Below, in pieces: positions 6,749 through 64,000 of a DNA stretch of 64,000 nucleotides. A model generated the notes under the pieces. That model did not search any database, was not told where the DNA came from, and was given only the letters and a program-made list of their open reading frames with translations. Each line of letters opens with the position of its first letter. Positions within the stretch are counted from its first letter, which is position 1. Origin of the DNA: Candidatus Omnitrophota bacterium (GTDB lineage Bacteria; Omnitrophota; Gorgyraeia; Gygaellales; Profunditerraquicolaceae); contig JBDRAV010000003.1 in assembly GCA_043823435.1 (NCBI GenBank), forward strand, positions 96,366-160,365, given 5' to 3'. The position numbers and the translations under genes are program-made.

Positions 6749-6751
6749 CGT

Positions 6752-11530: not shown

Positions 11531-12184
11531 TTACTTTAAGTTCTCTGCCGGTTCAATAAGCCCAGGCCCTTTTGTTTTCACCGAATCTTTCATTTTGGCC
11601 AATTGGGGCAAGATAACGATCTCAACACGGCGGTTTAACTGGCGGCCTTGCGCGCTGCCATTGGAAGCAACAGGCGTATATTCACCATAGCCGATTGCGG
11701 ATAAACGCTTAGGAGAAATATTCTTCTGGTCGACCATATAATGCAATACGCTCAGGGCACGGGCACTGGAAAGTTCCCAGTTCGATTTCCAGCCCGAGAA
11801 TTTAATAGGCATATTATCCGTATGCCCTTCTATACCTACATTCAGCTGGGGCACGTTATCTTTCAGCACGGTCGCCACCTTATCCAGTATAGGATAGCTC
11901 TGCGGCCTTATCTTTGCTTTCCCGGAATCAAACAAAACATCTCCTACCACCGTAACAACCAGGCCCTTCTCCATCAGCTCTAATTTTACATCCTTATCTC
12001 TGATCTCTTTACTAAGCGAGCTCTCTAGGATCCTCTTCGCCTGGTTCAATTCATCAAGTTGCTGGGATAATTCTTCAATCTTTTGCGCGTCCGAACGCCT
12101 CCCTTTCTGGAAGATAAAAGTGCATCCTGCCAGAGTAATGCTCAAGAAAAATATCATTACGGTTTTTAACAGTTTCCCTTTCAT
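11531..12184 (-). CDS. OmpA/MotB-family peptidoglycan-binding lipoprotein
   Basis: 217 aa. Lipobox LAGC, a coiled-coil linker, and an OmpA-like C-terminal domain (GHTDN...NRRVEIVIL). AAGGAGG SD. Confidence 0.8.
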   Translation of the reverse strand: MKGKLLKTVMIFFLSITLAGCTFIFQKGRRSDAQKIEELSQQLDELNQAKRILESSLSKEIRDKDVKLELMEKGLVVTVVGDVLFDSGKAKIRPQSYPILDKVATVLKDNVPQLNVGIEGHTDNMPIKFSGWKSNWELSSARALSVLHYMVDQKNISPKRLSAIGYGEYTPVASNGSAQGRQLNRRVEIVILPQLAKMKDSVKTKGPGLIEPAENLK

Positions 12185-14973: not shown

Positions 14974-16737
14974 TCACCTCTTTATTATTTTTTTAAGTTC
15001 TTCCTTCACCGGCACGCCATGCGAACTGAATATCTCCCGGTTATCCAGCAGATACGCCGGCCCCAACATAATTTGCAATTCCTCACTCAGCGCAATATTC
15101 TCCCTTAGAAGCCTATTCCCTTCTTCTCCGCGCGCGCAAATACTTATCTTATCCGTATCTGCTTCACCTAAGCAATCCTGCCACCATGAACTATTAATAG
15201 AATTCACCCGGCAGCTGATATAATTCCAAAACTCCTGAGGGTAATATTTCTGGACACAGACGCTGCGCAGGCATTCCTCTACTTCAAGGTTCCCTCCCTT
15301 TGCCTCAAACTTTCCCCCGGCCTTTTCGACAACTAAGAAATGCACAATAGGGTTGAATTCTCTTATCGTATTCAATAATGCCCGGGCATCCTTATGGTAT
15401 AAACTCATAAATAAATCCAGCCTTCCCTTAACGGGCTTTCTATCCAGATAATAAGCAATGCCGCTAAAACTGGGATTTAACATATAAAAATCACCCTTTG
15501 CCTGCAGGTTATTCTTTAATTTTCCAAACCCACCCCCTTCTTCCGCTTCTTTCCCCAGAAGATAAACCGGCAGGACATCGATACCCAAATCTTTGATTAA
15601 TCTGTCGGCTTCTTTCCCTGGATAATATAGGTAAGATACTGATAATCCAGGAAAGTATGTCTTCAAAAGGCTCTCCTTATCTTTAGTATAACATGTACTG
15701 CAAAGTTTAGAGGTAATGATCGAGAGGGGGACCTTGACTGCTTTAGTGAATACGCACCGTGCCTGCAATATACCGGGGGAGTCACATCTTCCTACCGACC
15801 CCTCCTGTTTGCAATTATTATCGGAGAAACAGCGCGGTAAAATAGACAGTATATCCGGATCATCGGATATCTTATCTGAAAGACGCAACTCTTCTACCCT
15901 GTAATTCGCTACTTTATTATCATTCAAATCCATGGTTAATTTCCCGATGCCGCGTCCCTGCCAGGAAGGCCTTAATATCAAAACGGCGCCTTCTTTGCTA
16001 AAAATATCTTTCTTTGTGCGGCTATGGCCTACAATAAGGATACCTATCCCCTCGACTTCCTTCAATAAACTTAAATCCTCACTCTCGCCCAGATGGCTTA
16101 TGAGTATAATAAGGTCTACTCTATTCTTTTTTAATTCTGATACTGCCTCTTTAACCGCTGTTTTCGGATCAATAAACCGCATGCCGCTTGCTCCGGCCTT
16201 CTGCTCTGCCAGAGAATTAGTCAAGCCGATTATACCTATCTTCCTGCCGGCGGATTCTTTTATAATATATGGCTTGAGCAAAGGAACCCCCGCCCCTTCT
16301 GCACAGATATTAGAAGAAAGAAAAGCTATCCGCGTCTTCCCGACATTATCCTGGAGGAACTCCATGCCGAAGTTAAATTCATCATCTCCGACTGTAGCGG
16401 CATCATACTTCATTAATTCCATTGCCTCAAGATTTACGATGGAGCGTTGCATATCCAGTTCTGTATTCTGGGTATATTCATCCTGAAGCCCGCCGGCAAA
16501 GAATCCGCCTGAATCTAACAATAAGAGGTCAGGGCTATCCTTTCTTAACTCTTTGATCAAGGTAGCGCGCCGCGCTATCCCGCCGTCCGACTGGTAATGG
16601 CAATTGCAAGGATAAAGCATTGCGTGCGTCTCGCCGGTATATAGTATGGTAATCTCCTGGGCGCTTATATCACTAGAGAACAGAAAACAGAAAACAAAGA
16701 GTGCTAGGGAGAATATAGATAAACTTTTTCTTGTCAT
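14974..16737 (-). CDS. secreted 5'-nucleotidase/metallophosphoesterase-like domain fused to Cys-rich and thioredoxin/DsbA-like C-terminal regions
   Basis: 587 aa. Signal peptide, then a UshA-like N-terminal half with altered metal motifs. Next comes a four-Cys cluster, a CSTC (CxxC) motif and a second Trx-like segment. Confidence 0.6.
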   Translation of the reverse strand: MTRKSLSIFSLALFVFCFLFSSDISAQEITILYTGETHAMLYPCNCHYQSDGGIARRATLIKELRKDSPDLLLLDSGGFFAGGLQDEYTQNTELDMQRSIVNLEAMELMKYDAATVGDDEFNFGMEFLQDNVGKTRIAFLSSNICAEGAGVPLLKPYIIKESAGRKIGIIGLTNSLAEQKAGASGMRFIDPKTAVKEAVSELKKNRVDLIILISHLGESEDLSLLKEVEGIGILIVGHSRTKKDIFSKEGAVLILRPSWQGRGIGKLTMDLNDNKVANYRVEELRLSDKISDDPDILSILPRCFSDNNCKQEGSVGRCDSPGILQARCVFTKAVKVPLSIITSKLCSTCYTKDKESLLKTYFPGLSVSYLYYPGKEADRLIKDLGIDVLPVYLLGKEAEEGGGFGKLKNNLQAKGDFYMLNPSFSGIAYYLDRKPVKGRLDLFMSLYHKDARALLNTIREFNPIVHFLVVEKAGGKFEAKGGNLEVEECLRSVCVQKYYPQEFWNYISCRVNSINSSWWQDCLGEADTDKISICARGEEGNRLLRENIALSEELQIMLGPAYLLDNREIFSSHGVPVKEELKKIIKR

Positions 16738-18320
16738 TACAGCCTGATTATTTTTACCGCTAAGATATTATCGGTTTTCTTTATCTTATCCAGGAGTTGC
16801 GCCGATACGGCACTATCCACATTCAGTATGGTAATCGCTTTTCCTCCCGGCTTTTCGCGGCCAAAGGTCATGGCGGCGATATTAATGTCGTGCTCACCAA
16901 GAAGCATCCCCATATTCCCGATAATGCCCGGCTTATCCCAGTTCTGTATCATGATCATTTCTCCCGCCGGGGAAACCTCTACGTAATAACCGCCGATCTT
17001 TACGATACGCGGCTGTTTATTCGCGGATAATGTACCAGATATCACCTTTGATTCCTTATCAGTCTTTATCTCAAGCTGTATCAGGTTCACGAACTCTTCT
17101 TCTTTAGAGGTCTTGGCCTCCCTGATCCTTATGCCCCTTTCCTTCGCCAGGCTTACGGCATTGATAAAATTTACCGTCTCCTTCAGGATAGGCGAAAGCA
17201 TCCCTTTCACGAGAGACATAGTCAAGGGGCTTAGATCATATTGCACGATCTCTCCGCTATAGCTTATGCTGAGTTCCTGGAACCTGCCCTCAACCATCTG
17301 GCCGCAAAAGGCACCCATCTTCTCGGCTAAATTGATATAGGGATCAAGGAATTTGCAAACCTCTGCTTCTATGCATGGGTAATTTGCGGCATTACGTATA
17401 CCTTTACCCAAGAGCGCATCACGTACTATCTGTGCCACTTCGATGGCGACATTGACCTGCGCTTCCTCGGTAGATGCACCCAGGTGCGGAGTTAATATGA
17501 CATTATCTAATTTTAATAACTCACTGTCGGCGGGCAATGGCTCATTTTCAAATACATCCAGCGCCGCTGCCGCTATCTTATCTTCTTTTATAGCGCTTAA
17601 TAATGCTGCCTCATCGATTATGCCCCCGCGGGCGCAATTTATTAAACGCGCCCCTTTCTTCATCGCATCGAATTCTTTGCCTGAGATTATATGTTTTGTT
17701 TCTTCGGTCAGGGGCGTATGTACGGTAATATAATCCGATTTGCCGAGGAGCTCTTTCAATTCAGCTATTTCTATACCCAGGCTCTCCGCGACTTCGCGCG
17801 ATAAAAACGGGTCATACGCCAGCACCTTCATTCCGAAAGATAAAGCACGTTTAGCCACTTCTGTGCCTATCCTGCCCAAACCCACGATACCTAATGTTTT
17901 TCCGTAAAGTTCGATCCCCATAAACTTGGAACGCTTCCATTCCCCTTTCTTCATAGAAACATTGGCCTGGGGTATATTCCTGGAGAGAGACAAGATCATG
18001 CTTATGGTATGCTCCGCGGTAGAAATAGTGTTTCCTCCGGGGGTATTCATTACGATTATCCCTTTTTGCGTGGCTGCCTCTAAATCAACGTTATCTAACC
18101 CTACCCCTGCGCGGCCGATGACTTTTAGCTTTGCGGCAGCTGCGATTATATCTTTGGTCACCTTGGTGGCGCTACGCACGATAAGGGCATCATAATTCCC
18201 GATCTCTTCTTTCAAGGCCTCAGGCTTCAGTCCAGTCTTGACATCTACCTGAAACTCCTTCACCTCTTTTAATATCTTCAGACCCTCTTCCGACAGCGGA
18301 TCACTGACTAATATTCTCAT
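16737..18320 (-). CDS. serA: D-3-phosphoglycerate dehydrogenase (long form with ACT domain)
   Basis: 527 aa. GLGRIG NAD-binding motif, 2-hydroxyacid dehydrogenase catalytic region, and a C-terminal ASB/ACT region. Confidence 0.95.
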   Translation of the reverse strand: MRILVSDPLSEEGLKILKEVKEFQVDVKTGLKPEALKEEIGNYDALIVRSATKVTKDIIAAAAKLKVIGRAGVGLDNVDLEAATQKGIIVMNTPGGNTISTAEHTISMILSLSRNIPQANVSMKKGEWKRSKFMGIELYGKTLGIVGLGRIGTEVAKRALSFGMKVLAYDPFLSREVAESLGIEIAELKELLGKSDYITVHTPLTEETKHIISGKEFDAMKKGARLINCARGGIIDEAALLSAIKEDKIAAAALDVFENEPLPADSELLKLDNVILTPHLGASTEEAQVNVAIEVAQIVRDALLGKGIRNAANYPCIEAEVCKFLDPYINLAEKMGAFCGQMVEGRFQELSISYSGEIVQYDLSPLTMSLVKGMLSPILKETVNFINAVSLAKERGIRIREAKTSKEEEFVNLIQLEIKTDKESKVISGTLSANKQPRIVKIGGYYVEVSPAGEMIMIQNWDKPGIIGNMGMLLGEHDINIAAMTFGREKPGGKAITILNVDSAVSAQLLDKIKKTDNILAVKIIRL

Positions 18321-18352
18321 CGTTCCTCCTAAATATAGTATAATTACATTGC

Positions 18353-18493
18353 AGAGACGTTTACCGAGTTAATCGGGAAGGTGTCCCTAATCCAATCGTT
18401 CTCTAAAATTGGGAAGCTATACCTTGAATTCTTTAAGGAACACCTTCCCGTTCAGACCAAAGACACTTTCCGCTTTGGCTTGGAAAACGTCTC
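18353..18493. repeat. second copy of the GAGACG-family long imperfect palindrome
   Basis: agagacgtttaccgagttaatcgggaaggtgtccc (18353-18387) matches 61396-61430 closely. Outer stem pairs 18354-18362 with 18485-18493. Inner stem pairs 18374-18386 with 18437-18450. Confidence 0.8.
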
Positions 18494-18498
18494 GGATA

Positions 18499-19635
18499 TT
18501 ATTTGAGGAATACTTCTTCAGCTGCTTTAACCCCGATTCCTAACTCAAACTTATACCCCATCTGGTACAATACTTTTTCAAGACAGGAGATACCCGCGAT
18601 AATATCAAACTCTTCTATGAAACCCATATGCGCGATCCTGATCAGCTTGCCTTTTAATTCCCCCTGGCCTCCGGCAATGGTAATGCCGTGGATATCGCGC
18701 ATGGTCTTTACTAATTTTCCTCCTTCGATACCGGCCGGCACCTTCGCCGCGGTGACCACATCAGAGGCTGCCGTAGGCGCAAGTAACTCCAACCCAAGTG
18801 CTTTTACGGCTGCCCTTGTGGCATCCGCCATCTTTTTATGGCGCGAGAAGATCGTATCTAACCCTTCCTCTCTCATTATCTTCAATGCTTCACATAGTGC
18901 GATTATCAGGGTTATCGCCGGAGTAAAAGGAGTATCCGTCACATCCGAAGCCTTCTTTGCCTTCTTCAGGCTGAAATAATACTTCGGGGACTTGGATTCC
19001 TCCACAAGCTTCCATGCCTTTGGGCTTACCGAAATGAAACCGAGGCCCGGTGGAAGCATCAACCCTTTTTGGGAACCCGAGACGACCACATCACAAGACC
19101 AAGCATCAGTCTGCAGGTCAATTGCCCCTAAGCCGCTTATGGCGTCTACTACCAGTACCGCAGGCGTATCTTTCACGACCTTACCGATAGCGGCTATATC
19201 ATTGACTACGCCGGTAGAAGTCTCGCAAAGCGTAGCAAATACCGCTTTTATTTTCGGGTTAGCCCTGAGCATCTTTCCTATCTGCTCCGGATCGACAGCC
19301 TTACCCCATTCTACGTCTATAACCTCGGGGATAATACCGTAAGTTTCACAAAGCTCGGTCCATCTCTCGCCGAATTTACCGCCCTGTATTGTTATGGCCG
19401 TGTCAGCGCAAGACAAAAGGTTAGCAACGGCTGCCTCCATCGCACCGGTGCCCGAAGAAGCAAAAATAAAGAGATCGCCTTTAGTCTGATAAATATATTT
19501 CAGCCCATCCGCTGCTTCTTTAAGTATTGCCTGGAATTGCGGTGTACGGTGATGAATAATGGGACGCGCCATTGCTTCGCAAACCTCTGGGGGCAATGGG
19601 GTAGGTCCCGGGGTCAATAGATACTGTTTTCTCAT
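18499..19635 (-). CDS. class-V aminotransferase (serine-pyruvate / phosphoserine aminotransferase type)
   Basis: 378 aa. AGXT-like sequence with SGSQKGL (PLP lysine). Upstream of serA, which suggests a phosphoserine aminotransferase role. Confidence 0.85.
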   Translation of the reverse strand: MRKQYLLTPGPTPLPPEVCEAMARPIIHHRTPQFQAILKEAADGLKYIYQTKGDLFIFASSGTGAMEAAVANLLSCADTAITIQGGKFGERWTELCETYGIIPEVIDVEWGKAVDPEQIGKMLRANPKIKAVFATLCETSTGVVNDIAAIGKVVKDTPAVLVVDAISGLGAIDLQTDAWSCDVVVSGSQKGLMLPPGLGFISVSPKAWKLVEESKSPKYYFSLKKAKKASDVTDTPFTPAITLIIALCEALKIMREEGLDTIFSRHKKMADATRAAVKALGLELLAPTAASDVVTAAKVPAGIEGGKLVKTMRDIHGITIAGGQGELKGKLIRIAHMGFIEEFDIIAGISCLEKVLYQMGYKFELGIGVKAAEEVFLK

Positions 19636-21250: not shown

Positions 21251-21303
21251 CCCGCTCTTCCTTTCCTAATTAATACCCCGACCCTTTTGGAAGGACGGGC
21301 CCC
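21247..21303 (-). promoter_or_regulatory. repeated hairpin + RBS + GTG-start leader cassette, copy A (tig)
   Basis: The 20-mer tcaccccgctcttcctttcc (21247-21266) is identical to 24506-24525. Upstream hairpin is CCCGTCCTTCCAAAAGGGTCGGGG (minus-strand sense). Confidence 0.7.
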
Positions 21304-21318
21304 CGTTTAAATGAACGC

Positions 21319-21352
21319 GCAACTTACGAATACGACAGTATGAGTAAGTTGT
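21319..21352. repeat. CAACTTAC / GTAAGTTG inverted repeat
   Basis: gcaacttac (21319-21327) and gtaagttgt (21344-21352), with arm starts 23 nt apart. Located upstream of the tig leader cassette. Confidence 0.7.
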
Positions 21353-21397
21353 ATGCGAGAATTTACATCCTACCTTATTAACAAGTATAAAAGGATG

Positions 21398-24527: not shown

Positions 24528-24557
24528 GCATACCCCTGCCCTACAGAAGGGCGGGGC
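24506..24557 (-). promoter_or_regulatory. leader cassette, copy B (kdsA-kdsD junction)
   Basis: Carries the same 20-mer as copy A. The hairpin CCCCGCCCTTCTGTAGGGCAGGGG starts right after the kdsA stop codon. Confidence 0.7.
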
Positions 24558-27127: not shown

Positions 27128-27193
27128 CCCACCCTTCCTCTCCTAATTGTATGCCCCAACCCTTTTGGAAGAGCGGGGTTCACCCCACTCTCC
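27124..27193 (-). promoter_or_regulatory. leader cassette, copy C (hldE), with an extra partial 3'-arm copy
   Basis: tcaccccacccttcctctcc (27124-27143) matches the A/B 20-mer at 17 of 20 positions. ccccgctcttcc (minus-strand sense, 27178-27167) is the exact complement of the A/B RBS segment. A duplicate GGAGAGTGGGGTG lies at 27193-27181. Confidence 0.65.
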
Positions 27194-27208
27194 TTTATTA
27201 TCTTAACT

Positions 27209-27229
27209 CCGGCCCTCAGGAAGGGCCGG
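27209..27229 (-). other. GC-rich hairpin directly after the DHS-like gene stop (terminator-like, no U-run)
   Basis: ccggccc (27209-27215) and gggccgg (27223-27229) form a perfect 7-bp stem with a 7-nt loop. Confidence 0.5.
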
Positions 27230-27231
27230 GT

Positions 27232-28220: not shown

Positions 28221-30248
28221 TCAACTATTCAAAATGGCATCCGCGGCAACTATAACATCATCCGTGGTTATCGCTTTAAGACACGCGAACTTCTTGGTGC
28301 AGTTATGCGCCAGACACTCTATACATCCGACCTCTTTATGCAGGACTTTATCTTTTATCCCGATCGGGCCCCAGCGTAGCGGCCCTAAACCCTTCTGGTT
28401 CCTGCCAAAAATAGAGATCACCGGTGTGCCTACGGCCACGGCAATATGCACGGGGCCGGAATCATTAGAGATAAATAAATCACACCTCTTCAAGATGCTG
28501 GCTAACTGGCTGACCGAAGTCTTTCCTGCCAGGTTGACCGCTGGCCGCTGCATATGTTTGACGACGCTCTCAGCCAACGTAATATCCTTAGGACCGCAGA
28601 CCACCAACACCTTGAAGCCATATTTTTCGTTTAACCTGTCAGCTGCTTCAGCGAACCCCTCATACGGCCAGATCTTCGAAGGGCAACTCGCACCCGGATG
28701 TATAGCTAATAATTTATCTGTCTCGCTTATCCCTTCCTGCCTGAACAACTCTTCTACCCAGGCTTCGGATTCTGGTTTCAGTGACATGAATATTTTATTG
28801 TCTTGCGGCTCAATGCCCAGATACCTGACTAAATCCAGGGCATACTCTGACTCATGTTTTTCTCCTGACTGCTTGGTATGCTTTATCCTGTCGGTAAGTA
28901 AAAATCCCAGTTTGCGGTCATAGCCGACCCTGCGGCGTATGCCGGCAAAGAGAGTCACCAGATGCGCGCGGTTGGTAGGATGAAGTATGACCGCTAAAGT
29001 AAACCTCCTCTTCTTAAGTCCCTGCGAGAATCTTAATGAACCCAACCAGCCTTTTTCTTTACCGTCCTTATCGTAAATAATCACTTCATCTAGACACGGA
29101 TTTCCGTCCACGATATCTTTTGTATAAGGAGAGACCATCGCCGCAATATATGCTGAAGGACAGCTATCCCTCAGTGCCTTTATTACCGGAGTCGATAAAA
29201 GCACGTCCCCTATCCTGTCCGTACGCACGATGAGTATGCGTTTATACTCGGTGCTCGGTGCTCGGTGCTCGGTGCTCTGAATTAATATTCTTCTGGCTTG
29301 CCTCAATACGTCTTCTGTTTTGATAAGCTGCATGCATCTTAATGTACCGTGGGCGCACTGCGCTTTTTCGCAAGGACGACAGAAGATATCTTTTTTTACT
29401 ACCGAATATAAGCGTGACCGGGGGCCGTATTTTCTTTCATTGGTCGGTCCGAAAACCGCCACAACCGGCGTATCCAGGTAACTTGCCAGGTGAAGCGTGG
29501 CGCTATCATTGGTAACCACGAGCGCGGATTTTCTCAGTAAAGAGGCAAGCTGCGCAATATTCGTCTTTGCGCTTAGATCCAAAAGGGGATATCGCGTATG
29601 CCCGGCTATGTATTTGTTGACCGGCGCGTCATCATTATCGCCGACCAAAACCACTTTGACTTTAAGCTCTTCTATTAAAGACTCGATTAACTGCGCGAAT
29701 TTATCCTGCTCCCATCTTTTTATATGGCTCCTGGCTCCGGCAGCAATAACGACTATCCTTTCCTGCCCGGTAATATTATTTTCCTTAAGAATATCTATAA
29801 TATATCTTTCATCTTCAGGCTTAACGCATAAAGACACCTGTTTAGTTTTATCATAAAGTCTCAACTTGAGTTTTAGCACCCTGTACAGGTGTCTATCTCT
29901 CATATGCATTATGCATTTTGGAATAACCAGAAGAGGGGAAGTCTTATCTCTGGCAGGTAACAACGCCCCGAAAAGACTGTTACGCATATCCGCGATGATG
30001 TCAAAGCCTTCAACTTTAAGCGCATTAAATAATTTTATCTTCTCCCTTAATGAAGAACGCTTATCGTAAATAATAAGCCTCTTAATATGGGGATTATCCC
30101 GGAATATATCTTTTGTGCGAACCCCGGATACTACCGTGACCTCTGACCCGGAGAAATTATCCACCAGGGTATCCAGGACCGGTAAAGTAAGGATGCAGTC
30201 GCCTATATTGCTTAAAGTAATAAAGAGTACCTTATTAACCATACCCAT
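28221..30248 (-). CDS. tandem glycosyltransferase family 9 (two heptosyltransferase-like modules in one ORF)
   Basis: 675 aa. Two GT9-type N-terminal motifs (VLFITLSNIGDCILTLP and ILIVRTDRIGDVLLSTP) and two C-terminal SNDSGPxH-like motifs. The modules are joined by a heptamer-repeat-encoded linker. Confidence 0.8.
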   Translation of the reverse strand: MGMVNKVLFITLSNIGDCILTLPVLDTLVDNFSGSEVTVVSGVRTKDIFRDNPHIKRLIIYDKRSSLREKIKLFNALKVEGFDIIADMRNSLFGALLPARDKTSPLLVIPKCIMHMRDRHLYRVLKLKLRLYDKTKQVSLCVKPEDERYIIDILKENNITGQERIVVIAAGARSHIKRWEQDKFAQLIESLIEELKVKVVLVGDNDDAPVNKYIAGHTRYPLLDLSAKTNIAQLASLLRKSALVVTNDSATLHLASYLDTPVVAVFGPTNERKYGPRSRLYSVVKKDIFCRPCEKAQCAHGTLRCMQLIKTEDVLRQARRILIQSTEHRAPSTEYKRILIVRTDRIGDVLLSTPVIKALRDSCPSAYIAAMVSPYTKDIVDGNPCLDEVIIYDKDGKEKGWLGSLRFSQGLKKRRFTLAVILHPTNRAHLVTLFAGIRRRVGYDRKLGFLLTDRIKHTKQSGEKHESEYALDLVRYLGIEPQDNKIFMSLKPESEAWVEELFRQEGISETDKLLAIHPGASCPSKIWPYEGFAEAADRLNEKYGFKVLVVCGPKDITLAESVVKHMQRPAVNLAGKTSVSQLASILKRCDLFISNDSGPVHIAVAVGTPVISIFGRNQKGLGPLRWGPIGIKDKVLHKEVGCIECLAHNCTKKFACLKAITTDDVIVAADAILNS
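29247..29274. repeat. (CTCGGTG)x4 tandem heptamer inside the tandem-GT9 ORF
   Basis: Four perfect copies, 29247-29274, followed by a partial ctc. They encode STEHRAPSTE in the inter-module linker. Confidence 0.9.
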
Positions 30249-30254
30249 ATCTTT

Positions 30255-30334
30255 GCACCGTCTGCCAATTCAATCTCGTACCCGGTGCGAGATTAGAAAC
30301 AAAGCAGGTACCCGATTACCTCGGCACCAGGTAC
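30255..30334. repeat. degenerate 23-nt-periodic array, 4 units, related to GCACCWGGTGC
   Basis: Unit starts at 30255, 30278, 30301 and 30324. Cores read gcaccgtctgc / gtacccggtgc / aaagcaggtac / gcaccaggtac. The 12-mer caatctcgtacc is shared with 57554-57565. Confidence 0.6.
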
Positions 30335-30338
30335 TATC

Positions 30339-37297: not shown

Positions 37298-38351
37298 TTT
37301 TTATGATCTTCAATTCTATGCGCAGGAACCATACCGGCAACTTATAGCCGGTAACCGGAAGCTGGTAAAGCCTGGATGCGTCTTTCTCGGTAGTGACCAG
37401 CACGCTTATTCCCGTATCTGTGGATTTGCTAATAATCTCATCCATATCTTTCTGGGTATAATTATAATGGTCGCGGAACCTGAAAGAAGTGCCGATATTC
37501 ACCCCCTGTTTGCTGACCAGCAGCTCAAAAGAAGCGGGGTCCGCTATGGCAGAGAATAAACCCGCGCTCTTACCCGCCAGCATATCCGCCCCCATCAGTT
37601 CACGCGGTTTATCCAGCCTGCAAAATCCCAAAGGGGCATGCGCGGACTCTACCTGAAAGGCCCCCGGATTGATACGCCTCAAATAACCCTTGACCTCATC
37701 TTGTGCCGGGCTAATATTGGCCTTGGTCAGTATAAAGATGTCGGCGCGTTTAAGCGATGAAAGCGGCTCGCGCAATATCCCGCGGGGGATAAGATTACGG
37801 TTCCCGAAAGGGAAGGTACTGTCAACGGCAACTATCTCAAGGTCCTTTTTTATGCGCCACTGCTGCATCCCGTCATCCAAGATCACCGTATCCGCTCCGT
37901 AATCGCGTATTGCCGAATTTCCCGCGCGTATCCTATCATGATCTACTATCACGGGTATATCTTTCAAGTTCATCTGCAGCATATAAGGCTCATCGCCCAT
38001 TGCCTCGGCGTTCGGTGTTCGGTGTTCGGTGTTCGGCCGAGAACCGAGAACCGAGAACCGAGAACCCATTCTTTTATATCCTCTGCTAAGTATCGCTACT
38101 TTATGCCCATGCTCCTTTAAATAGCGCGCAATATACAATACGAGGGATGTCTTCCCTGTCCCGCCCAAAGTAATATTTCCCACGCTGATAACTTTACATC
38201 CCAGCCGGTAAGGTTTAATGCGATAAATAAAGAGTAATATCCTGACAACTAGTCCATAGATAAGAGAGATAAGGTAGAGAAAAGAATTGAGCGTCCCCGC
38301 TACGGGCCCTCTATGTTTATCTGTGGCCAGTTCGTAAATATAACGTAACAT
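37251..38351 (-). CDS. lpxK: tetraacyldisaccharide 4'-kinase
   Basis: P-loop GNITLGGTGKT, SRGY and GDEP motifs. I prefer the start at ATG 38351 (MLRYIYE), which overlaps the stop of the upstream gene (TGATG). The ORF-track start at 38507 lies inside that gene. Confidence 0.85.
   Translation of the reverse strand: MLRYIYELATDKHRGPVAGTLNSFLYLISLIYGLVVRILLFIYRIKPYRLGCKVISVGNITLGGTGKTSLVLYIARYLKEHGHKVAILSRGYKRMGSRFSVLGSRPNTEHRTPNAEAMGDEPYMLQMNLKDIPVIVDHDRIRAGNSAIRDYGADTVILDDGMQQWRIKKDLEIVAVDSTFPFGNRNLIPRGILREPLSSLKRADIFILTKANISPAQDEVKGYLRRINPGAFQVESAHAPLGFCRLDKPRELMGADMLAGKSAGLFSAIADPASFELLVSKQGVNIGTSFRFRDHYNYTQKDMDEIISKSTDTGISVLVTTEKDASRLYQLPVTGYKLPVWFLRIELKIIKNEEGFRSRLLGLFSH
38004..38064. repeat. 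two-armed heptamer palindrome inside lpxK
   Basis: ctcggcg (ttcggtg)x3 ttcgg, then (ccgagaa)x4. The central tcggccga is a perfect 8-nt palindrome. The element encodes GSRFSVLGSRPNTEHRTPNAE. Confidence 0.9.
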
Positions 38352-38623
38352 CAGATCCTTCCCAATAACATCAGTATGCCCATTACGATAAATAATGACG
38401 CCCCGGCATACCTGATAAGCTCGGGCTTTAAATATTTTGCCAGGACAGCTCCCAGAATAACCGATAAAATAGTAACAGCGGCGTAGGCCAAAACAGAGCC
38501 TGCCCATACGGACAAGGGCCTGCCGGATTTCGCAGACATGCTTATCCCCACCAGTTGCGTCTTATCCGCAAGCTCCGCGAAGAACACTGCCGTGAATGTA
38601 GCCATAAATATTTTCCACTCCAT
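38351..38623 (-). CDS. UPF0016 (GDT1/TMEM165) family membrane protein, single-repeat form
   Basis: 90 aa. Three TM helices, an ELADKT (E-x-G-D-K-T-like) motif and an AAAGAGGAG SD. Confidence 0.75.
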   Translation of the reverse strand: MEWKIFMATFTAVFFAELADKTQLVGISMSAKSGRPLSVWAGSVLAYAAVTILSVILGAVLAKYLKPELIRYAGASLFIVMGILMLLGRI

Positions 38624-38691
38624 AATCCGCTCCTCTTTAAAGTGTATCCGTTATGCGTTAATCGGTATCGCAGTTTAAACCGTCAAACGTA

Positions 38692-38718
38692 TTGCGTAAG
38701 TTGTTTCGGGTTACGCAA
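38692..38718. repeat. TTGCGTAA / TTACGCAA inverted repeat containing CGTAAGTTGT
   Basis: Perfect 8-bp arms at 38692-38699 and 38711-38718. The 10-mer cgtaagttgt lies at 38695-38704. Located upstream of the UPF0016-lpxK genes. Confidence 0.7.
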
Positions 38719-38741
38719 ACCGTTAATCTTTTTTGAACCGC

Positions 38742-46295: not shown

Positions 46296-46315
46296 ATCTC
46301 GGGAGAAACTCTTTT

Positions 46316-46374
46316 TAGGGACAGCGACTATTTTTTATTCTTACTGGCTTTGCAAAAAGTAGTCGCTGTCCCTA
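46316..46374. repeat. 15-bp perfect-stem hairpin at the aroK-dprA junction
   Basis: tagggacagcgacta (46316-46330) pairs with tagtcgctgtcccta (46360-46374) around a 29-nt loop. The right arm contains the aroK stop codon. Confidence 0.8.
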
Positions 46375-48294: not shown

Positions 48295-48310
48295 ATCTAC
48301 CTCCAATTTT

Positions 48311-48367
48311 GCACCTGGTGCCAGATTAACTTTGCACCAGGTGCAAAGTTAAGATTGTACCTGTCCC
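48311..48367. repeat. 23-nt-periodic array, 3 units, core GCACCWGGTGC
   Basis: Unit starts at 48311, 48334 and 48357. Cores read gcacctggtgc / gcaccaggtgc / gtacctgtccc. Unit 2 is the centre of a 25-nt perfect palindrome at 48327-48351. Confidence 0.85.
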
Positions 48368-48369
48368 CT

Positions 48370-49991: not shown

Positions 49992-50023
49992 GGTAACCCC
50001 CTTTTGGTATCTATTCTTCGCTT

Positions 50024-50052
50024 ATTTTACTCTTTTTAATTGGATAAATCAA
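50024..50052 (-). promoter_or_regulatory. sigma-70-type promoter for the zf-TFIIB / DUF3786 / nuclease operon
   Basis: Minus strand reads TTGATT (50052-50047), a 17-nt spacer, then TAAAAT (50029-50024). It lies back to back with the plus-strand promoter. Confidence 0.5.
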
Positions 50053-50069
50053 TAAATTTAGATTATAAT
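50040..50069 (+). promoter_or_regulatory. sigma-70-type promoter for the helicase transcript
   Basis: Plus strand reads TTGGAT (50040-50045), an 18-nt spacer, then TATAAT (50064-50069). This implies a leader of about 210 nt. Confidence 0.5.
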
Positions 50070-50229
50070 AAGTGAGGATATAAGTTACGGGGTAGCTATT
50101 AACTGGCTAAACGAAATAACTTATAAGTCCGAACTTATATTTGAGAAATAACGAATAACTAAGGATCTCCCTCGCATCTTAAATGAATATAGGGGTGCTC
50201 GGGATAAATTCGCAGACGCCCTACGGGCT

Positions 50230-50276
50230 ACAACTTACGTCATTACCATAAGTAAGTTAGCCGCTCCGTAAGTTGC
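50230..50276. repeat. ACAACTTACG plus two GTAAGTT(A/G) partners
   Basis: acaacttacg at 50230-50239, gtaagtta at 50252-50259 and cgtaagttg at 50267-50275. The element ends 12 nt before the helicase ATG. Confidence 0.7.
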
Positions 50277-50287
50277 CTGCTCATGTT

Positions 50288-52165
50288 ATGATTTATGACC
50301 GTTTCCAGAAGGAAGCGATTGATTACATCAACCAGGGGCACTCCGTTATTGTCTCCGCTCCCACCGGCGCGGGTAAGACCGCGATAGCCGAACATATTCT
50401 GGATACCTCAATCGAGAATAACAGGGGCGTAGTTTATACCGCTCCCATAAAGGCCCTCTCTAATCAGAAGTTCCGCGATTTCCATGGACAATTCGGGGAT
50501 AATATCGGGATATTGACCGGTGATGTATCGATAAACCCCGAAGCGCCTGTGCTGATTATGACTACCGAAATATTCCGTAATAAAATCCTGGATGAGCCGG
50601 GGAGTTTAGAGAAATACTCCTGGGTCATCTTTGACGAAGTCCATTATATTGATAACCCCGAGCGCGGAACGGTGTGGGAGGAATCACTCATATTCCTTCC
50701 AAAACACATGAACGTACTCGCCCTCTCTGCAACCATACCTAATATCAATAAATTAGCGGAGTGGATTCAGTCTATACATAATAAGCCGGTAAAGACGGTG
50801 ATCGAGGATAAGAGGCCTGTACCTTTACACTTCTTCTACCAATGCCAGAACGAGATCGTGGATAATATAAACAGCTTAAAGAGGCTGGGCCCGGGGAGGC
50901 AAAACCGGATGAACTCCCTAATTAACTATATCCGCCAGAAAGAGGGGCTCCCCTGTATCTATTTTGTTTTCGGAAGAAGGCGCGCCGAAGATTTAGCCCT
51001 GGAACTACACAGCTATAATTTCCTGAGCGCAGATGAGCGTAAAAATATATTATCCCTGTATGACTCCCTCTGCGAGCGCTTTGACTTAAAACATGAAAGG
51101 TCTGCGCAGACATTGTATTCTCTTATCCAGAACGGTATCGCCTATCACCACGCCGGGATGCTCCCCACCTTAAAGGAAGTTATTGAAAGGTTGTTCACCA
51201 GCCGCCTCTTAAAGGTTATTTTTACTACCGAGACCTTTGCCCTCGGGATAAATATGCCCAGTCGCACGGTTATCTTTGATAATTTAAGGAAATATTACGG
51301 CCGGTATATCAGGACATTAAAGACGCGCGATTTCTACCAGATGGCAGGACGCGCAGGCAGGCGCGGGATAGATAAGGAGGGTTTTGTCTATTGCCGGATA
51401 AACCCCGCGCGAATAAACCTGGATGATGTAAAACGCATCATCTACGGAAGGCCCGAAGAGGTTAGGAGTCAGCTGAATTCATCTTACGCCACTATCCTTA
51501 ACCTCTATGAAAAGCATAAAGAAGAAATCTACAAAATATATCCTCTCTCCCTGCATTATTTCCAGTCCAAAAAACATGAGCAAAGAGAGGCATTAAGGTT
51601 AATTGAAGCGAAATTAAAGCTCCTTCGAGATTTGAATTATCTTTCAGGGGATACGCTGACCAAAAAGGGTCAGTTCGCAAAGACCGTCTATGGCTACGAA
51701 CTTATCTTGTCTGAACTTTACGATGAGAATATTTTAGAACAGCTGGATGAATTTGACCTGGGGATCCTGACGGCGGCAACAGTATTTGAACCCCGTAAGA
51801 ATCAAAAGATGCTCGGGATATCAAAACCTGCGCGCAGGATAAAGAGGGCTTGCGAGGAGATATACGACAGGATAAAGGCAAAAGAGATGAAGTGCAGGAT
51901 CTATCCCTCTAGCAAGATACCGTACTTTCACCTGAGTAATTGCATGGAGGCGTGGCTGCGGGGGACAACCTTTGATAAGATACTACGATTTACGGATACA
52001 GATGAAGGCGAGATCGTGCGCTATTTCAGGATGAGCGTGCAGATCTTACGCGAAATCAACGACGCCAAGGTCGCCTCTTGTATCTTAAAAGATCGAATTA
52101 AAGAAACTATCCGCGTCATCAACCGCGACATCATCGACGCCGAAAAACAATTAAGAGAAGGTTAA
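50288..52165 (+). CDS. Ski2-like DEAD/DEAH-box helicase with DSHCT-like C-terminus
   Basis: Helicase motifs APTGAGKT, DEVH, SAT and QMAGRAGRRG, with a C-terminal DEGEIVRYFR. I prefer ATG 50288 (MIYDRF) over the ORF-track TTG at 50273. This is the only plus-strand gene. Confidence 0.85.
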   Translation: MIYDRFQKEAIDYINQGHSVIVSAPTGAGKTAIAEHILDTSIENNRGVVYTAPIKALSNQKFRDFHGQFGDNIGILTGDVSINPEAPVLIMTTEIFRNKILDEPGSLEKYSWVIFDEVHYIDNPERGTVWEESLIFLPKHMNVLALSATIPNINKLAEWIQSIHNKPVKTVIEDKRPVPLHFFYQCQNEIVDNINSLKRLGPGRQNRMNSLINYIRQKEGLPCIYFVFGRRRAEDLALELHSYNFLSADERKNILSLYDSLCERFDLKHERSAQTLYSLIQNGIAYHHAGMLPTLKEVIERLFTSRLLKVIFTTETFALGINMPSRTVIFDNLRKYYGRYIRTLKTRDFYQMAGRAGRRGIDKEGFVYCRINPARINLDDVKRIIYGRPEEVRSQLNSSYATILNLYEKHKEEIYKIYPLSLHYFQSKKHEQREALRLIEAKLKLLRDLNYLSGDTLTKKGQFAKTVYGYELILSELYDENILEQLDEFDLGILTAATVFEPRKNQKMLGISKPARRIKRACEEIYDRIKAKEMKCRIYPSSKIPYFHLSNCMEAWLRGTTFDKILRFTDTDEGEIVRYFRMSVQILREINDAKVASCILKDRIKETIRVINRDIIDAEKQLREG

Positions 52166-57524: not shown

Positions 57525-57537
57525 CAGTTTTAATATT

Positions 57538-57617
57538 GCACCTGGTGCGAAACCAATCTCGTACCTGTCCTGTTTTTGTGCTGGCACCTGGTGCGCGATT
57601 GCATTTGCACCTGGTGC
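57538..57617. repeat. 23-nt-periodic array, 4 units, core GCACCTGGTGC
   Basis: Unit starts at 57538, 57561, 57584 and 57607. Cores read gcacctggtgc / gtacctgtcct / gcacctggtgc / gcacctggtgc. Confidence 0.85.
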
Positions 57618-59789: not shown

Positions 59790-60874
59790 ATCAAGTTGCT
59801 TATCCTTTCTACTGCTTCTTTTATTATACCCATTGTTTCGGCGTAAAAATCAAACGGTCTGCCAATAGGATCAGCGATACCCAAATCATTATCATTCATT
59901 TTAGCAAATTCTTTCAATAAAAACAGCCTATTTTTTGCCTCCGGCACCATCTCCACGATCCTCTTCTCATGCAGCCTCTCCATGACCAGTATAATATCAG
60001 ACCTCTTCAACATCTCCCTGGTCACCATTTGCGAGCGATGCGCTGATGAATCTATCCCTTCATTCGCCAGGAGCCCCTTCACTTCTTCGGACGCCTTAAG
60101 ACCCTTCAGCATCATTATGCCCGCTGAAAGGACTTCTACATCATTGCGATTTTTATCCTCCAGCGCCTTTTCCAAAAGGAATTTTGCCATCACCGAACGG
60201 CAGGAATTGCCTGTGCATATAAAAATAACCGTCTTCTTTTTGAGTGCCGCTTCGATATCTTCTTTTTTTATGGCGCCTTCCCTTAATACGCGCACCGGCT
60301 CAACAGCGAGGTCTACTATCGTTGACTCCGCCCCCAGCGTGGTCCTGCCGGCGTCTATGGCAAAGTCAACCAGCCCGTCTAAATCTTTTATGGCATCTTG
60401 AAAATCCGCGGGAGCGGGCTTACCGGACAGATTCGCGGAAGGGCAGACTACCGGGACTGCGGATAGGGCGATTACCTTTAAGGCGAAATTATTGTCGGGT
60501 ATGCGCATGCCGATAGTGTCTGTATTGTTACCCCCGGTATCGACATTATGCCTAGATTTAAATATCAGCGTCAAGGGTCCGGGCCAGAATTTATTCATGA
60601 GTTTATATGCTAAGACAGGGATACCCCAGGCATAGCATTCTACCTTCTCTTTCTCGTATATATGCAGGGAGAAGGATTTATTCTTTGGCCGCTCCTTGAT
60701 CCTGGATAACCTCTCCATTGCCCTGGCATTCTGTGCGTTAGCGGCTATGCCGTAGACTGTTTCGGTAGGTATGATCACCAGCCCGCCTTTGGCTAAAATG
60801 TCCGCTGCTTCCTTCAAGTAGCTTTCCTTCTTATGGGTCGAAGAATCTATCTTTACTATCTTGGTAGAAATCAT
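59786..60874 (-). CDS. tsaC: L-threonylcarbamoyladenylate synthase (YrdC/TsaC domain) fused to low-molecular-weight phosphotyrosine phosphatase
   Basis: 362 aa. YrdC domain (IIPTETVYGIAANA), then an LMW-PTP P-loop (CTGNSCRS) from about aa 215. Confidence 0.85.
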   Translation of the reverse strand: MISTKIVKIDSSTHKKESYLKEAADILAKGGLVIIPTETVYGIAANAQNARAMERLSRIKERPKNKSFSLHIYEKEKVECYAWGIPVLAYKLMNKFWPGPLTLIFKSRHNVDTGGNNTDTIGMRIPDNNFALKVIALSAVPVVCPSANLSGKPAPADFQDAIKDLDGLVDFAIDAGRTTLGAESTIVDLAVEPVRVLREGAIKKEDIEAALKKKTVIFICTGNSCRSVMAKFLLEKALEDKNRNDVEVLSAGIMMLKGLKASEEVKGLLANEGIDSSAHRSQMVTREMLKRSDIILVMERLHEKRIVEMVPEAKNRLFLLKEFAKMNDNDLGIADPIGRPFDFYAETMGIIKEAVERISNLI

Positions 60875-61356
60875 ATTTTAATCTTTGTCTTGCTGATTTT
60901 AATACGCATCCTGTTCCTGTATGCAGCGAGCATTGAATTTATCTTCTTATTGTTTGTCCCCAGGATCTCCAGGGCGAAGAGCGCGGCATTCTTTGCCCCT
61001 GCCTTGCCTATGCTCATTGAAGCAACAGGTATACCTGCGGGCATCTGGACGGTGGATAATAATGAGTCCATCCCTTTGAGGCTCTTTGTCTCAATGGGGA
61101 TGCCGATAACCGGAAGTGTCGTATGCGATGCGATAACCCCTGCAAGCGCTGCAGCTCCGCCGGCAGCAGCTATAAAAACTTTTATCCCTTTTTTAGGCGC
61201 CTCTTCCAGGTACTTTGCCAATTCCTTGGGGCTGCGGTGCGCGGATAAAACCTTTACGTCAAAACCGACTCTAAATTCCTTTAGTATTCCTATCGCTTCC
61301 TTGAGTGTATCTAAATCCGACTGGCTCCCCATAATAATACTTATAACCTTCCCCAT
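60871..61356 (-). CDS. purE: N5-carboxyaminoimidazole ribonucleotide mutase
   Basis: 161 aa. PurE family (IMGSQSD, SAHRSP). AAGGAGG SD. Confidence 0.95.
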   Translation of the reverse strand: MGKVISIIMGSQSDLDTLKEAIGILKEFRVGFDVKVLSAHRSPKELAKYLEEAPKKGIKVFIAAAGGAAALAGVIASHTTLPVIGIPIETKSLKGMDSLLSTVQMPAGIPVASMSIGKAGAKNAALFALEILGTNNKKINSMLAAYRNRMRIKISKTKIKI

Positions 61357-61372
61357 AACCCCCTCCTTAATT

Positions 61373-61517
61373 AGAGACGTTTTCCAACCTAATCCAGAGA
61401 CGTTTTCCGAGCTAATCGGGAACCTGTCCCCTATAAGGAACGGGTTCCGCTTTGGACCAGAAGACGTCTCCGCTTTGAGCTGGTAGACGTCTTTGCTTTG
61501 GGGCGGAAAGCGTCTCT
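61373..61517. repeat. two-armed 23-nt-periodic GAGACG/CGTCTC array (about 145 nt)
   Basis: Left-arm units at 61373 and 61396 (agagacgttttcc...). Central GGAACC/GGTTCC hairpin at 61419-61448. Right-arm CGTCT units at 61465, 61488 and 61511. Confidence 0.85.
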
Positions 61518-61527
61518 GTTTTATTGT

Positions 61528-62808
61528 TTATTGCGCGGCTTTGCGGCCGATATCCTTGCGGTAATGCATGCCGTCAAAATGGATCTTCTCTACCGCATTA
61601 TAAGTATTGTTAATCGCCTCTTTTATTGTATTGCCCAGGCCGGTAACGCCTAATACACGCCCGCCGCTGGTAAAATATTTCCCGTCCTCTTTTCTGGTCC
61701 CTGCATGAAAGACTATTATATCGGCTAATTTCCGGGCTTCATCAAGCCCGGAAATTAATTTTCCTTTTTCGTAACTACCTGGATAACCTCCGGATGCGCA
61801 AACCACGCTTACGCATGCGCGTGTATCCCACCTTAAGCAACCCGCCTTTACAACCTTGCTCAGATTATCGCCGCCTGCGGCCAACATCGTTTCTAATAAA
61901 TCTGATTTTAAGCGCGGCAATATTGCCTGTGTTTCAGGGTCTCCGAAACGGACATTGAATTCCAAAACCTTCGGCCCCTCTTTGGTAACCATGATCCCGG
62001 CGTATAATACACCGTTATATTTAATCCCCTCTTTCGCCAGGCCGTCTATGGTCCGGTATATAACTTTATCCAGGATATCTTTGAATAATCCGTCTGTCAC
62101 TACCGGTGCCGGAGAATAAGCCCCCATCCCGCCTGTGTTCGGACCGGCATCATTATCAAATATCCGCTTATGGTCCTGGCTTGATGCCAAAGGTATGACC
62201 TCGCGGGAATCCGCAAGCACGATGATGGATGCTTCCTCACCTATTAGGCAATCCTCAACAATAACTTTCCTGCCGGCATCGCCAAAGAGATTATCCTGCA
62301 TTATCGATACAACTGCCTGCTTCGCTTCATCAGTTGTCTTTGCGACAATCACTCCTTTACCCTGTGCCAGACCATCTGCCTTAACTACGCAAGGGGCACC
62401 ATTTTTCTCGATATATTTTTTTGCCTCATCCGCATTATCAAAGATCTTAAAGTCAGCGGTAGGGACATTGTATTTTGCCATCAATTCCTTGGCAAAGACC
62501 TTGCTTGCCTCTAACCGCGCTGCTTTTTTATCGGGCCCGAATATATTTAATTTATGATTGCGGAATTCATCAACGATTCCTCCTGCCAGGGAGACCTCAG
62601 GGCCTACAACGGTCAGGTCTATCTTTTCTTTCCTGGCGAACTCCAATAACCCGGGGATATCATCAGCTTTTATATCAATGCACTCTGCCTGATCCGATAT
62701 GCCGCCGTTGCCGGGAGCGCAGAAGAGCTTGCCCGCTAATTTTGATTGTGCGAGTTTCCACGTTAAGGCGTGCTCACGGCCGCCGGAACCGATAACTAAT
62801 ATTTTCAT
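61528..62808 (-). CDS. purD: phosphoribosylamine-glycine ligase
   Basis: 426 aa. ILVIGSGGREHAL N-terminus and ATP-grasp body. Confidence 0.95.
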   Translation of the reverse strand: MKILVIGSGGREHALTWKLAQSKLAGKLFCAPGNGGISDQAECIDIKADDIPGLLEFARKEKIDLTVVGPEVSLAGGIVDEFRNHKLNIFGPDKKAARLEASKVFAKELMAKYNVPTADFKIFDNADEAKKYIEKNGAPCVVKADGLAQGKGVIVAKTTDEAKQAVVSIMQDNLFGDAGRKVIVEDCLIGEEASIIVLADSREVIPLASSQDHKRIFDNDAGPNTGGMGAYSPAPVVTDGLFKDILDKVIYRTIDGLAKEGIKYNGVLYAGIMVTKEGPKVLEFNVRFGDPETQAILPRLKSDLLETMLAAGGDNLSKVVKAGCLRWDTRACVSVVCASGGYPGSYEKGKLISGLDEARKLADIIVFHAGTRKEDGKYFTSGGRVLGVTGLGNTIKEAINNTYNAVEKIHFDGMHYRKDIGRKAAQ

Positions 62809-63736: not shown

Positions 63737-63792
63737 ACAACTTACGTCCCGCCCGCTATCACATAGAACAGAGGGAAGTGAACGTAAGTTGT
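63737..63792. repeat. ACAACTTACGT / ACGTAAGTTGT inverted repeat
   Basis: Perfect 11-bp arms at 63737-63747 and 63782-63792 with a 34-nt loop. Located upstream of the SPFH gene. Confidence 0.8.
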
Positions 63793-64000
63793 TTAGGCTA
63801 GATTCTTCGCTTTGCTCAAAACCGTCCACGATTCCTGAACAAAGAAAGGACGATTTACACACCACCTCATTAATAACTACAAAAGGGTAATAGGATTAAT
63901 CCAGCGCCGAATAATTACGGCTGCCGCTTGCAAGGCCTCTCTGAAATGCCGCCTTTTGTTTCTATTGTAAAAATATTCTTCCCTGTAACGCCGCATTCAG

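Follow-up and report, generated by a model that had tools for sequence, protein, structure and literature searches.

The 64,000-nt stretch of DNA from an uncultured Omnitrophota bacterium analysed here, hereafter the window, carries in the spacer between its purD and purE genes a 145-nt element (61373-61517) that is, in all likelihood, a non-autonomous doublet of a repeat family of the Omnitrophota resembling the repetitive extragenic palindromic (REP) sequences. Its design is that of a REPIN, i.e. a REP doublet folding into a hairpin, lacking the gene for a REP-associated tyrosine transposase (RAYT). The element would thus not be a purine-specific control element, since it appears as one copy of a dispersed hairpin repeat family served by a RAYT. 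This reading is carried by the observed anatomy of the element, its repeat family, the covariation within the hairpin, the strand asymmetry, the position of RAYT genes between inverted arms and the polymorphism of the junction in relatives. All element coordinates are window positions and the sense strand is the minus strand, on which both genes flanking the 171-nt spacer (61357-61527) are encoded.

Anatomy of the purD-purE element and its copies in the window

Read in the sense direction, the junction consists of the following parts:

61528..62808, minus strand: purD (phosphoribosylamine-glycine ligase), ending with its stop codon 10 nt ahead of the element
61527-61518, minus strand: lead-in, the 10 nt between the purD stop and the element
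61495..61517, minus strand: left unit L1, AGAGACGCTTTCCGCCCCAAAGC, a 13-nt box, 3 variable nt and the CCAAAGC linker
61472..61494, minus strand: left unit L2, AAAGACGTCTACCAGCTCAAAGC, an extra direct unit at 23-nt spacing
61449..61471, minus strand: left unit L3, GGAGACGTCTTCTGGTCCAAAGC, the innermost one, paired with right unit R1 in the minimum free energy (MFE) fold
61437..61448, minus strand: inverted head of the left arm, GGAACCCGTTCC, base-paired to the right head, its sequence deviating from the family consensus
61432..61436, minus strand: central loop TTATA, 5 nt, the position of the RAYT gene in full-length relatives
61419..61431, minus strand: head of the right arm, GGGGACAGGTTCC, matching the GGGGWSAS motif (PMC3733652)
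61396..61418, minus strand: right unit R1, CGATTAGCTCGGAAAACGTCTCT, the CGATTAG linker, 3 variable nt and a 13-nt box
61373..61395, minus strand: right unit R2, GGATTAGGTTGGAAAACGTCTCT, a direct duplicate of right unit R1 (91% identical) and the end of the element
61372-61354, minus strand: tail to purE, AATTAAGGAGGgggttATG
61362..61368, minus strand: purE Shine-Dalgarno sequence AAGGAGG, separated by 4 nt from the end of the element and by 5 nt from the ATG at 61356
60871..61356, minus strand: purE (AIR carboxylase family), the downstream gene, with PF00731 in syntenic relatives

An earlier note on this DNA had described the spacer as a 145-nt two-armed array of 23-nt units at 61373-61517, with two units, a central hairpin and three inverted units, and this description agrees with the output of both programs applied. 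Tandem Repeats Finder reported 61373-61417 with a period of 23, 2.0 copies and 90% matches, while the repeat finder yielded the 22-23-mers at 61373 and 61396 (91% identical), the units at 61449, 61472 and 61495 spaced 23 nt (75% identical) and a 36-nt inverted repeat joining the two arms. The CGTCT cores at 61465, 61488 and 61511 as well as the GGAACC...GGTTCC centre at 61419-61448 lie where that note had placed them. With its 3 + 2 units, the element is found at the large end of the family range. Left units L2 and L3 have the palindromic AGACGTCT core in common, and the L1 unit type recurs in the metagenome contigs L147 and L209. The right head together with right unit R1 represents the canonical 36-nt module, matched at 61393-61433(-) by model R1 with 50.5 bits (a sequence present in the training set of the model); the plus-strand module of the left head reaches only 7.2 bits. 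The 13-mer box GGAAAACGTCTCT, with at most one mismatch, occurs five times in the window, in all cases within the purD-purE element or within another copy at 18.3-18.5 kb, the number expected by chance being ~0.08 according to our own estimate.

That other copy of the GAGACG-box element, located between the open reading frames (ORFs) 16737-18320 and 18499-19635, came to light when all intergenic spacers of the window were surveyed, and had not been linked to the purD-purE element in the earlier note:

18353..18494, minus strand: left unit CGAGACGTTTTCCAAGCCAAAGC, a degenerate unit, the central hairpin GGGAAGGTGTTCC...GGGACACCTTCCC, then CGATTAACTCGGTAAACGTCTCT

It has the outer boxes GAGACGTTTTCC / GGTAAACGTCTCT and the CCAAAGC and CGATTA linkers of the purD-purE element, its central hairpin being longer, and folds with an MFE of -55.2 kcal/mol (z = -3.47). 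Model R1 matches it at 18350-18390(-) with 44.8 bits and at 18462-18491(+) with 30.5 bits and E = 3.5e-5, the latter sequence being outside the training set.

Three further arrays (48307-48369, 57525-57616 and 30249-30338) exhibit the heads AGGGGACAGGT / AGGACAGGT as in the purD-purE element and the same 23-nt period, their boxes being palindromic (TGCACCWGGTGCA, degenerate GTACC/GCACC at 30.2 kb). The first of them occupies the junction upstream of the gene called aroC in the earlier note; the 11-mer that the note had seen there and in the purD-purE spacer, ACCTGTCCCCT, is confined to these two sites (48359 and 61422) within the window. The superfamily link to the GCACCWGGTGC arrays, proposed on that basis, is strengthened, for those at 48307-48369 and 57525-57616, by the common head, the common 23-nt period and the contig L156, in which a head identical to that of the purD-purE element (GGGGACAGGTTCCCGATTAG) is followed by 23-nt units whose palindromic boxes are GGTACCCGGTACC and GGTACCTGGTGC. 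This array is positioned at the aroK junction, the GGTACCCGGTACC boxes after the shikimate-kinase-like gene being a compensated change of the palindrome. Altogether, the 64-kb window harbours two clear copies and four related arrays. The hairpin GGACAGCGACTA...TAGTCGCTGTCCCT at 46296-46371, with a GCAAAGC-like linker, is probably a further box variant of the family, and L192 bears CAGTCGCTGTCCCTA beside a true module.

The repeat family across metagenomes

The metagenomes were scanned with the pattern GGGGACA-NN-TY-N-Y-CGATTRG, i.e. the core common to the four first examples, which returned at least 120 loci; the full head-linker-box design was seen in 52 of the 120 matches listed, hence in at least 52 loci. 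The family head of 12-13 nt (GGGGACA plus 5-6 nt) is followed by one to three 23-nt units, each consisting of an 11-nt linker stretch (CGATTGG or GCTTTRG plus ~4 variable nt) and a 12-nt box, typically AGAA(A/C)CGTCCCT, with the array ending exactly at ...CCCT. Of the 84 arms scored among the matches listed, 48 are single-unit, 35 two-unit and one a three-unit arm, and the box-to-box spacing was exactly 23 nt in 25/25 cases; single-armed copies are common. Concerning the boxes, the GGGACG type forms the majority of the family, the GAGACG type is present in the purD-purE element, L121, L147, L172, L209 and L220, and the palindromic subfamilies have GGGACCTGTCCC, GGTACCCGGTACC or GCACCWGGTGC. 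The nearest subfamily copies, those of L147 and L209, possess the arms AGAGACGCTTTCC...GGAAAGCGTCTCT as in the purD-purE element, with single units only.

The doublets of the REPIN type—the purD-purE element, the 18353-18494 copy and those of L107, L146, L147, L175, L196, L209, L222 and L223—always consist of two arms of different type on opposite strands, one CGATT and one GCTTT. Their central loop varies from 4 to 64 nt. The period is thus rigid within the arms only, and the 23-nt phase across the whole spacer, to which the earlier note had drawn attention, is arithmetically true for the purD-purE copy but incidental at its centre and not a property of the family.

The head with the first unit constitutes a 36-nt imperfect palindrome: the head, an 11-nt loop and a 12-13-nt box complementary to the head. 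In a covariation test on 55 distinct modules with 500 shuffles, 87.6% of the cells were paired against 83.6 +/- 0.5 in the shuffles, and both sides had changed in 41 cells against 9.0 +/- 4.8, a value of 41 being reached in 0/500 shuffles. The pairs 11-30, 13-28 and 14-27 alternate between U-A and C-G across the modules, and pairing falls to 43-61% if the partner is slid by 1-3 columns. At two adjacent positions of the stem, the CGATT strand has conserved mismatches (A.C and C.A), which correspond to G.T / T.G wobbles on the opposite one; the complementary strand is the more stable one in 50/55 modules with RNA parameters and in 49/55 with DNA parameters.

The rigid 23-bp period and the palindromic box types—AGACGTCT of the purD-purE element in addition to GCACCWGGTGC, GGTACCCGGTACC and GGGACCTGTCCC—might also be taken for an array of duplex DNA sites, 23 bp apart, for a transcription factor or a nucleoid protein, all the more as the bacterial interspersed mosaic elements (BIMEs) of Escherichia coli bind IHF and gyrase. 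Such an array is, however, very unlikely. The box sequence varies between arrays of one genome, the head and the linker alone being constant, so that a sequence-specific duplex binder would not see all the boxes; moreover, head and box covary as a hairpin, and the arms flank the gene for a single-strand-specific HUH transposase (see below). A PurR-type operator, considered for an AAAACGT core loosely like the E. coli PurR box, was rejected on the grounds that the same units adjoin unrelated genes, and a sigma-54 promoter reading of TGGCACC-N-GGTGCA was given up with the spacing off by 2 nt (by eye).

The modules of the family adjoin unrelated genes, such as rdgB, a tRNA, aroK, the RAYT gene and many others. 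Little room is left between the copies and the adjacent genes, the nearest stop or start codon often being no more than ~10 nt away, and many copies end directly before a ribosome-binding site (e.g. L128, L081, L084 and L170). Relative to co-directional neighbouring genes, 20 copies are in the opposite and 13 in the same orientation, the doublets being divided 4 and 4 (all according to crude longest-ORF calls); a strand-specific RNA element was ruled out by these mixed orientations. As regards density, the 10-kb relative L111 contains three elements with four arms in total. In L121 (10440-10740), L220 and L162, whole modules are arrayed in tandem with a 46-nt (2 x 23) period, the unit—head, CGATTGG linker, GGAAAACGTCTCC box and TGTGTGG linker—being repeated four or more times; in their layout these arrays resemble the BIME-2 clusters of E. 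coli.

In L111, L125, L149, L195, L213 and L224, a one- or two-unit arm and the start codon of an rdgB-like gene (assigned from its translation MELVIATQNKKKLEEIKEILKG) are 9 nt apart, the arm being on the opposite strand and its outer end overlapping the TAG stop of the neighbouring gene, which looks like a conserved insertion site. Among viral contigs, nearly all of the 15 pattern matches are chance ones. The only true copy, that of L096 (IMG/VR contig 3300037067_022525; module 12135-12170), lies ~150 nt after a tRNA-like sequence and comes from the same sample as L081; the contig might be a piece of bacterial DNA wrongly classed as viral, or the edge of a prophage.

Transposase genes, the junction in relatives and the predicted fold

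When E. coli RayT (NC_000913.3) was used as the phmmer query against all ORFs of all loci, three ORFs were matched, all of them in array-bearing loci that had been fetched for the DNA motif. These three ORFs match Pfam Y1_Tnp with E-values of 1e-17 to 1e-19; the NCBIfam model NF047646 (REP-associated tyrosine transposase) gave 85.9 and 78.5 bits at a cut-off of 80, the IS200 model scored weakly against the same transposases (22.8 bits), and the RAYT motifs PNHIHL and YIEYNP are present. Each RAYT gene is positioned between two inverted arms, the heads of which point at the gene. The same inverted-arm flanks were seen at the RAYT loci P0124 and P0203, fetched via the protein alone, and the arrangement was found in 5/5 related Omnitrophota contigs (L214, L205, L171, L227 and L229); every named close RAYT homologue is from Omnitrophota. 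In their layout, the doublets, the purD-purE element included, thus correspond to a RAYT locus without the gene between its two arms, which points to the REPIN relationship.

With regard to the source genome, the RAYT P0145 (MFH1888481.1), encoded on a 133.6-kb contig, is 79% identical to the RAYT of L214 and has both the HUH and the Tyr motifs intact. Its accession number is 260 apart from that of MFH1888741.1, which is identical to the PurD of the window, both being NCBI-only proteins of Omnitrophota metagenome-assembled genomes (MAGs). Because of this closeness in numbering, the source MAG very probably encodes MFH1888481.1.

The two-armed inverted design with the ends AGAGACG...CGTCTCT would also suit a classical miniature inverted-repeat transposable element (MITE), left by an insertion sequence of the DDE type, having terminal inverted repeats and flanked by target-site duplications. 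This origin is hardly credible given that no target-site duplication was found at the purD-purE copy or at four clean doublets, the sole transposase between such arms is the Y1 RAYT (5/5), and single-armed copies are common. The idea of Tn7- or Mu-like ends with multiple transposase sites was likewise dropped on finding the RAYT between the arms. Of the three roles suggested in the earlier note, the REP/BIME-like and the MITE-like ones are jointly supported, in the form of a dispersed non-autonomous hairpin repeat that also flanks RAYT genes.

The earlier note had called for a look at the junction in related genomes and for further copies; the latter exist both in the window and in relatives, and the junction bears a smaller copy, a remnant or nothing. 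The next-best relative of the window's PurD is 84% identical (L081), the best match among GTDB species representatives being 76% identical. The 72-nt spacer of L081 holds a one-unit version of the element, AGGGACGGTTCT...CTAAAGC...GTCCCC-GAT-GGGGACACTTTTC-CGATTGG-CTTC-AGAACCGTCCCT, in which both stems have changed in a compensated way (boxes AGGGACGGTTCT / AGAACCGTCCCT). In L088, a module remnant overlaps the end of purD (28.2 bits, E = 5e-4); the spacers of L001, L002, L006 and L089 are 3-26 nt long and have no element, and the junctions of L004, L007, L010, L015, L084 and L086 are occupied by other, unrelated hairpins. The repeat family is restricted by lineage: model R1 has matches in L006 (which bears a doublet), L081, L084, L088, L227 and L229, and at E-values up to 1 it finds nothing in L001-L005 or L008-L015, the match in L007 being partial (16.6 bits, E = 0.24). 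The presence of the element at the same junction in L081 and L088 points to its long vertical persistence.

Concerning the transcript, ~60/62 predicted genes of the window are on the minus strand, mostly overlapping or separated by very short spacers, the only clearly plus-strand part being 50273-52165. The window thus represents one long co-directional gene run, from which it follows that the purD-purE element is almost certainly transcribed. As the earlier note had foreseen, the minus strand of the spacer folds as a single long imperfect hairpin, with an MFE of -66.9 kcal/mol against -49.4 +/- 4.6 kcal/mol for shuffled spacers (z = -3.79; 0/200 shuffles equally stable). The purE Shine-Dalgarno sequence stays unpaired in this fold; within the purD-purE transcript, the element is therefore predicted to form a strong hairpin leaving that site free, and an effect on the decay or processing of the mRNA would be plausible.

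A strongly structured sequence immediately upstream of purE in a purine gene cluster may well evoke a dedicated purine cis-regulatory RNA—a riboswitch, an attenuator or a protein-binding leader—controlling purE. This explanation is close to refuted. No Rfam match was obtained in the whole window at gathering thresholds, and in the spacer, at E-values up to 10, there were chance-level matches only, the best one with 14 bits against a gathering score of 35; the same modules are found in both orientations beside genes as unrelated as rdgB, a tRNA, aroK and RAYT; and the junction is without the element in relatives having a PurD 68-80% identical. The conspicuous structured spacer may thus be explained without a new regulator, which should prevent its annotation as a purine leader RNA.

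It is a real, if lesser, possibility that the element now serves its host as an RNA hairpin between the two cistrons, hampering decay or being processed by an RNase and thereby adjusting the level of the purD segment relative to the purE one, which would be compatible with a mobile origin. REP hairpins set relative segment levels in some E. coli operons. The very stable fold, its end 4 nt before a free Shine-Dalgarno sequence, the almost certain transcription, the many family copies ending right before a ribosome-binding site and the unrelated hairpins that occupy the junction in other Omnitrophota (L004, L007, L010, L015 and L086) all argue for it. On the other side, family members face either way with respect to the genes flanking them, it is usually not the strand transcribed at purD-purE but its complement that gives the more stable hairpin, spacers of 3-26 nt suffice in close relatives, and a promoter/terminator scan of the spacer revealed no such site on the sense strand and one weak terminator-like site on the antisense one.

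Based on the above results, the preferred reading—a REPIN-like doublet mobilised in trans—may be put as follows. A RAYT encoded elsewhere in the genome would bind the head and the mismatched loop on one strand of transiently single-stranded DNA, and would have copied or maintained the arms in trans. Arms may have been extended by extra boxes in strict 23-nt steps, two head-to-head arms making a doublet and, in the full-length version, flanking the gene for the RAYT, a Y1 HUH tyrosine transposase. The purD-purE copy would then be a long-resident insertion that entered the junction before the split from the L081 lineage, probably gained its extra units later by local duplication (right units R1 and R2 being 91% identical), and whose left head appears to have drifted since (7.2 bits). 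As a side effect, 3'-exonucleolytic decay could be slowed down at the transcribed hairpin, or the message could be processed there. The mixed orientation, the lack of a target-site duplication and the lack of an Rfam match speak against a strand-specific RNA regulator and a DDE-type MITE; they fit a single-strand, hairpin-recognising Y1 system. In Y1 transposition, as known for IS200/IS605, an absent target-site duplication is expected.

Several points weigh against this reading. The family lacks the 5' GTAG tag that is canonical for classical REPs, the 64-kb window has no RAYT gene and only two clear copies, and the link of a RAYT to the same genome relies on neighbouring accession numbers only. 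The element at the same junction in L081 and L088 argues for long vertical persistence, any recent mobility being hypothetical, and the purD-purE copy may no longer be mobilisable because its left head has diverged (7.2 bits). It should also be noted that the orientation counts rest on the longest-ORF heuristic, and that the action of the RAYT on the family sequences is putative, as judged from sequence.

It is rather doubtful that the rigid 23-nt tilings with a constant head and linker and exchangeable boxes (GAGACG, GGGACG, GGGACCTGTCCC, GCACCWGGTGC or GGTACCCGGTACC) are a new mode of construction of a REPIN-RAYT system, the hairpins of which, placed flush with stop codons and ribosome-binding sites, have been adopted as standard intercistronic punctuation of long operons in very compact Omnitrophota genomes. 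If true, the transposase would read only the head and the loop, and the arrays would expand by unit addition. The family is in any case an unusually regular substrate—fixed head and loop, swappable boxes and a strict 23-nt step—that could help to reveal what RAYTs recognise and how REP arrays grow. For practical purposes, Omnitrophota MAGs can be screened for these repeats, a probable contributor to contig breaks there, with model R1 or the core pattern.

Other repeats, distinct from the purD-purE family, were noticed in the window. A short hairpin family, CCCGnCCTTCC-nnAA-GGGnnGGGG, occurs at 21251-21397, 24528-24557 and 27128-27231, followed in two cases by ATTAGGA(A/G)AGGAAG directly ahead of the next start codon; a similar hairpin is found in L089 (14627-14677). 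A further family of repeats, composed of AACTTACG / CGTAAGTT (or ATAAGTTAT) hairpins, is located in the window at 21251-21397, 38508-38741, 49992-50272 and 63739-64000 and in relatives at 6605-6789 and 15862-16086 of L084 and 4878-5147 of L089; in the relatives these hairpins flank a long ACCCCACACCAATTG...CAATTGGTGTGGGG palindrome. Finally, Tandem Repeats Finder detected perfect 7-nt tandem repeats inside long ORFs at 29247-29277 and 38005-38066, namely CTCGGTG x4.4, and TCGGTGT x4.6 directly followed by CCGAGAA x4.3, the latter two being roughly complementary.

Comparison with known systems

REPINs and their RAYTs have reportedly been described in E. coli and Pseudomonas by Bertels and Rainey. 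The Omnitrophota family has in common with REP/REPIN-RAYT systems the short imperfect palindromes, which likewise seem to be dispersed in extragenic spacers, the inverted doublets folding into one long hairpin, the Y1 HUH transposase gene flanked by inverted repeats, the lack of a target-site duplication and the persistence at the same locus in related genomes. It differs from classical REPs in having no GTAG, the foot being (T)A-GGGGACA in the position weight table, and from REP/REPIN sequences in general in its 11-nt conserved loop and 2x2 internal mismatch, in arms that grow by direct 23-nt units (box plus linker) and not by alternating whole REPs, and in the host, Omnitrophota instead of Proteobacteria. 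The range of REP/REPIN-RAYT systems would thus gain a candidate phylum known from metagenomes only; the literature search yielded no paper linking Omnitrophota with REP elements.

With the BIMEs of E. coli, which are mosaics of REPs and fixed linkers, the family shares the mosaic build from a few types of boxes and linkers, the variable number of units and the location inside operons; unlike the BIME units, however, which are whole palindromes in alternation, the extra units of the Omnitrophota arms are direct half-stems.

The CGTC-tagged REPs are described, in the passages of PMC3733652 devoted to them, as having 8-9-bp stems, 4-5-nt loops, a terminal CGTC, CCA tails and no associated transposase. 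The Omnitrophota boxes likewise hold CGTC next to the stem end, but their stems comprise ~11-12 positions with an internal loop, the loops have 11 nt and there is a RAYT. As far as those passages define the group, membership in it was ruled out by this stem/loop geometry (11-nt loop, 2x2 internal mismatch) and by the associated RAYT.

The same source also describes the 'TIRtrons', tyrosine transposase genes flanked by inverted repeats with GGGGWSAS, the dispersed copies of which are moderately abundant (Di Nocera et al. 2013, PMC3733652). Omnitrophota are not covered by that paper, and its relevant passages describe neither 23-nt modular arms nor two linker types. The Omnitrophota head GGGGACA[C/G] nevertheless fits the GGGGWSAS motif and is found on both sides of the transposase gene, and the dispersed copies occur as singles, dimers and clusters, just as reported for the TIRtrons.

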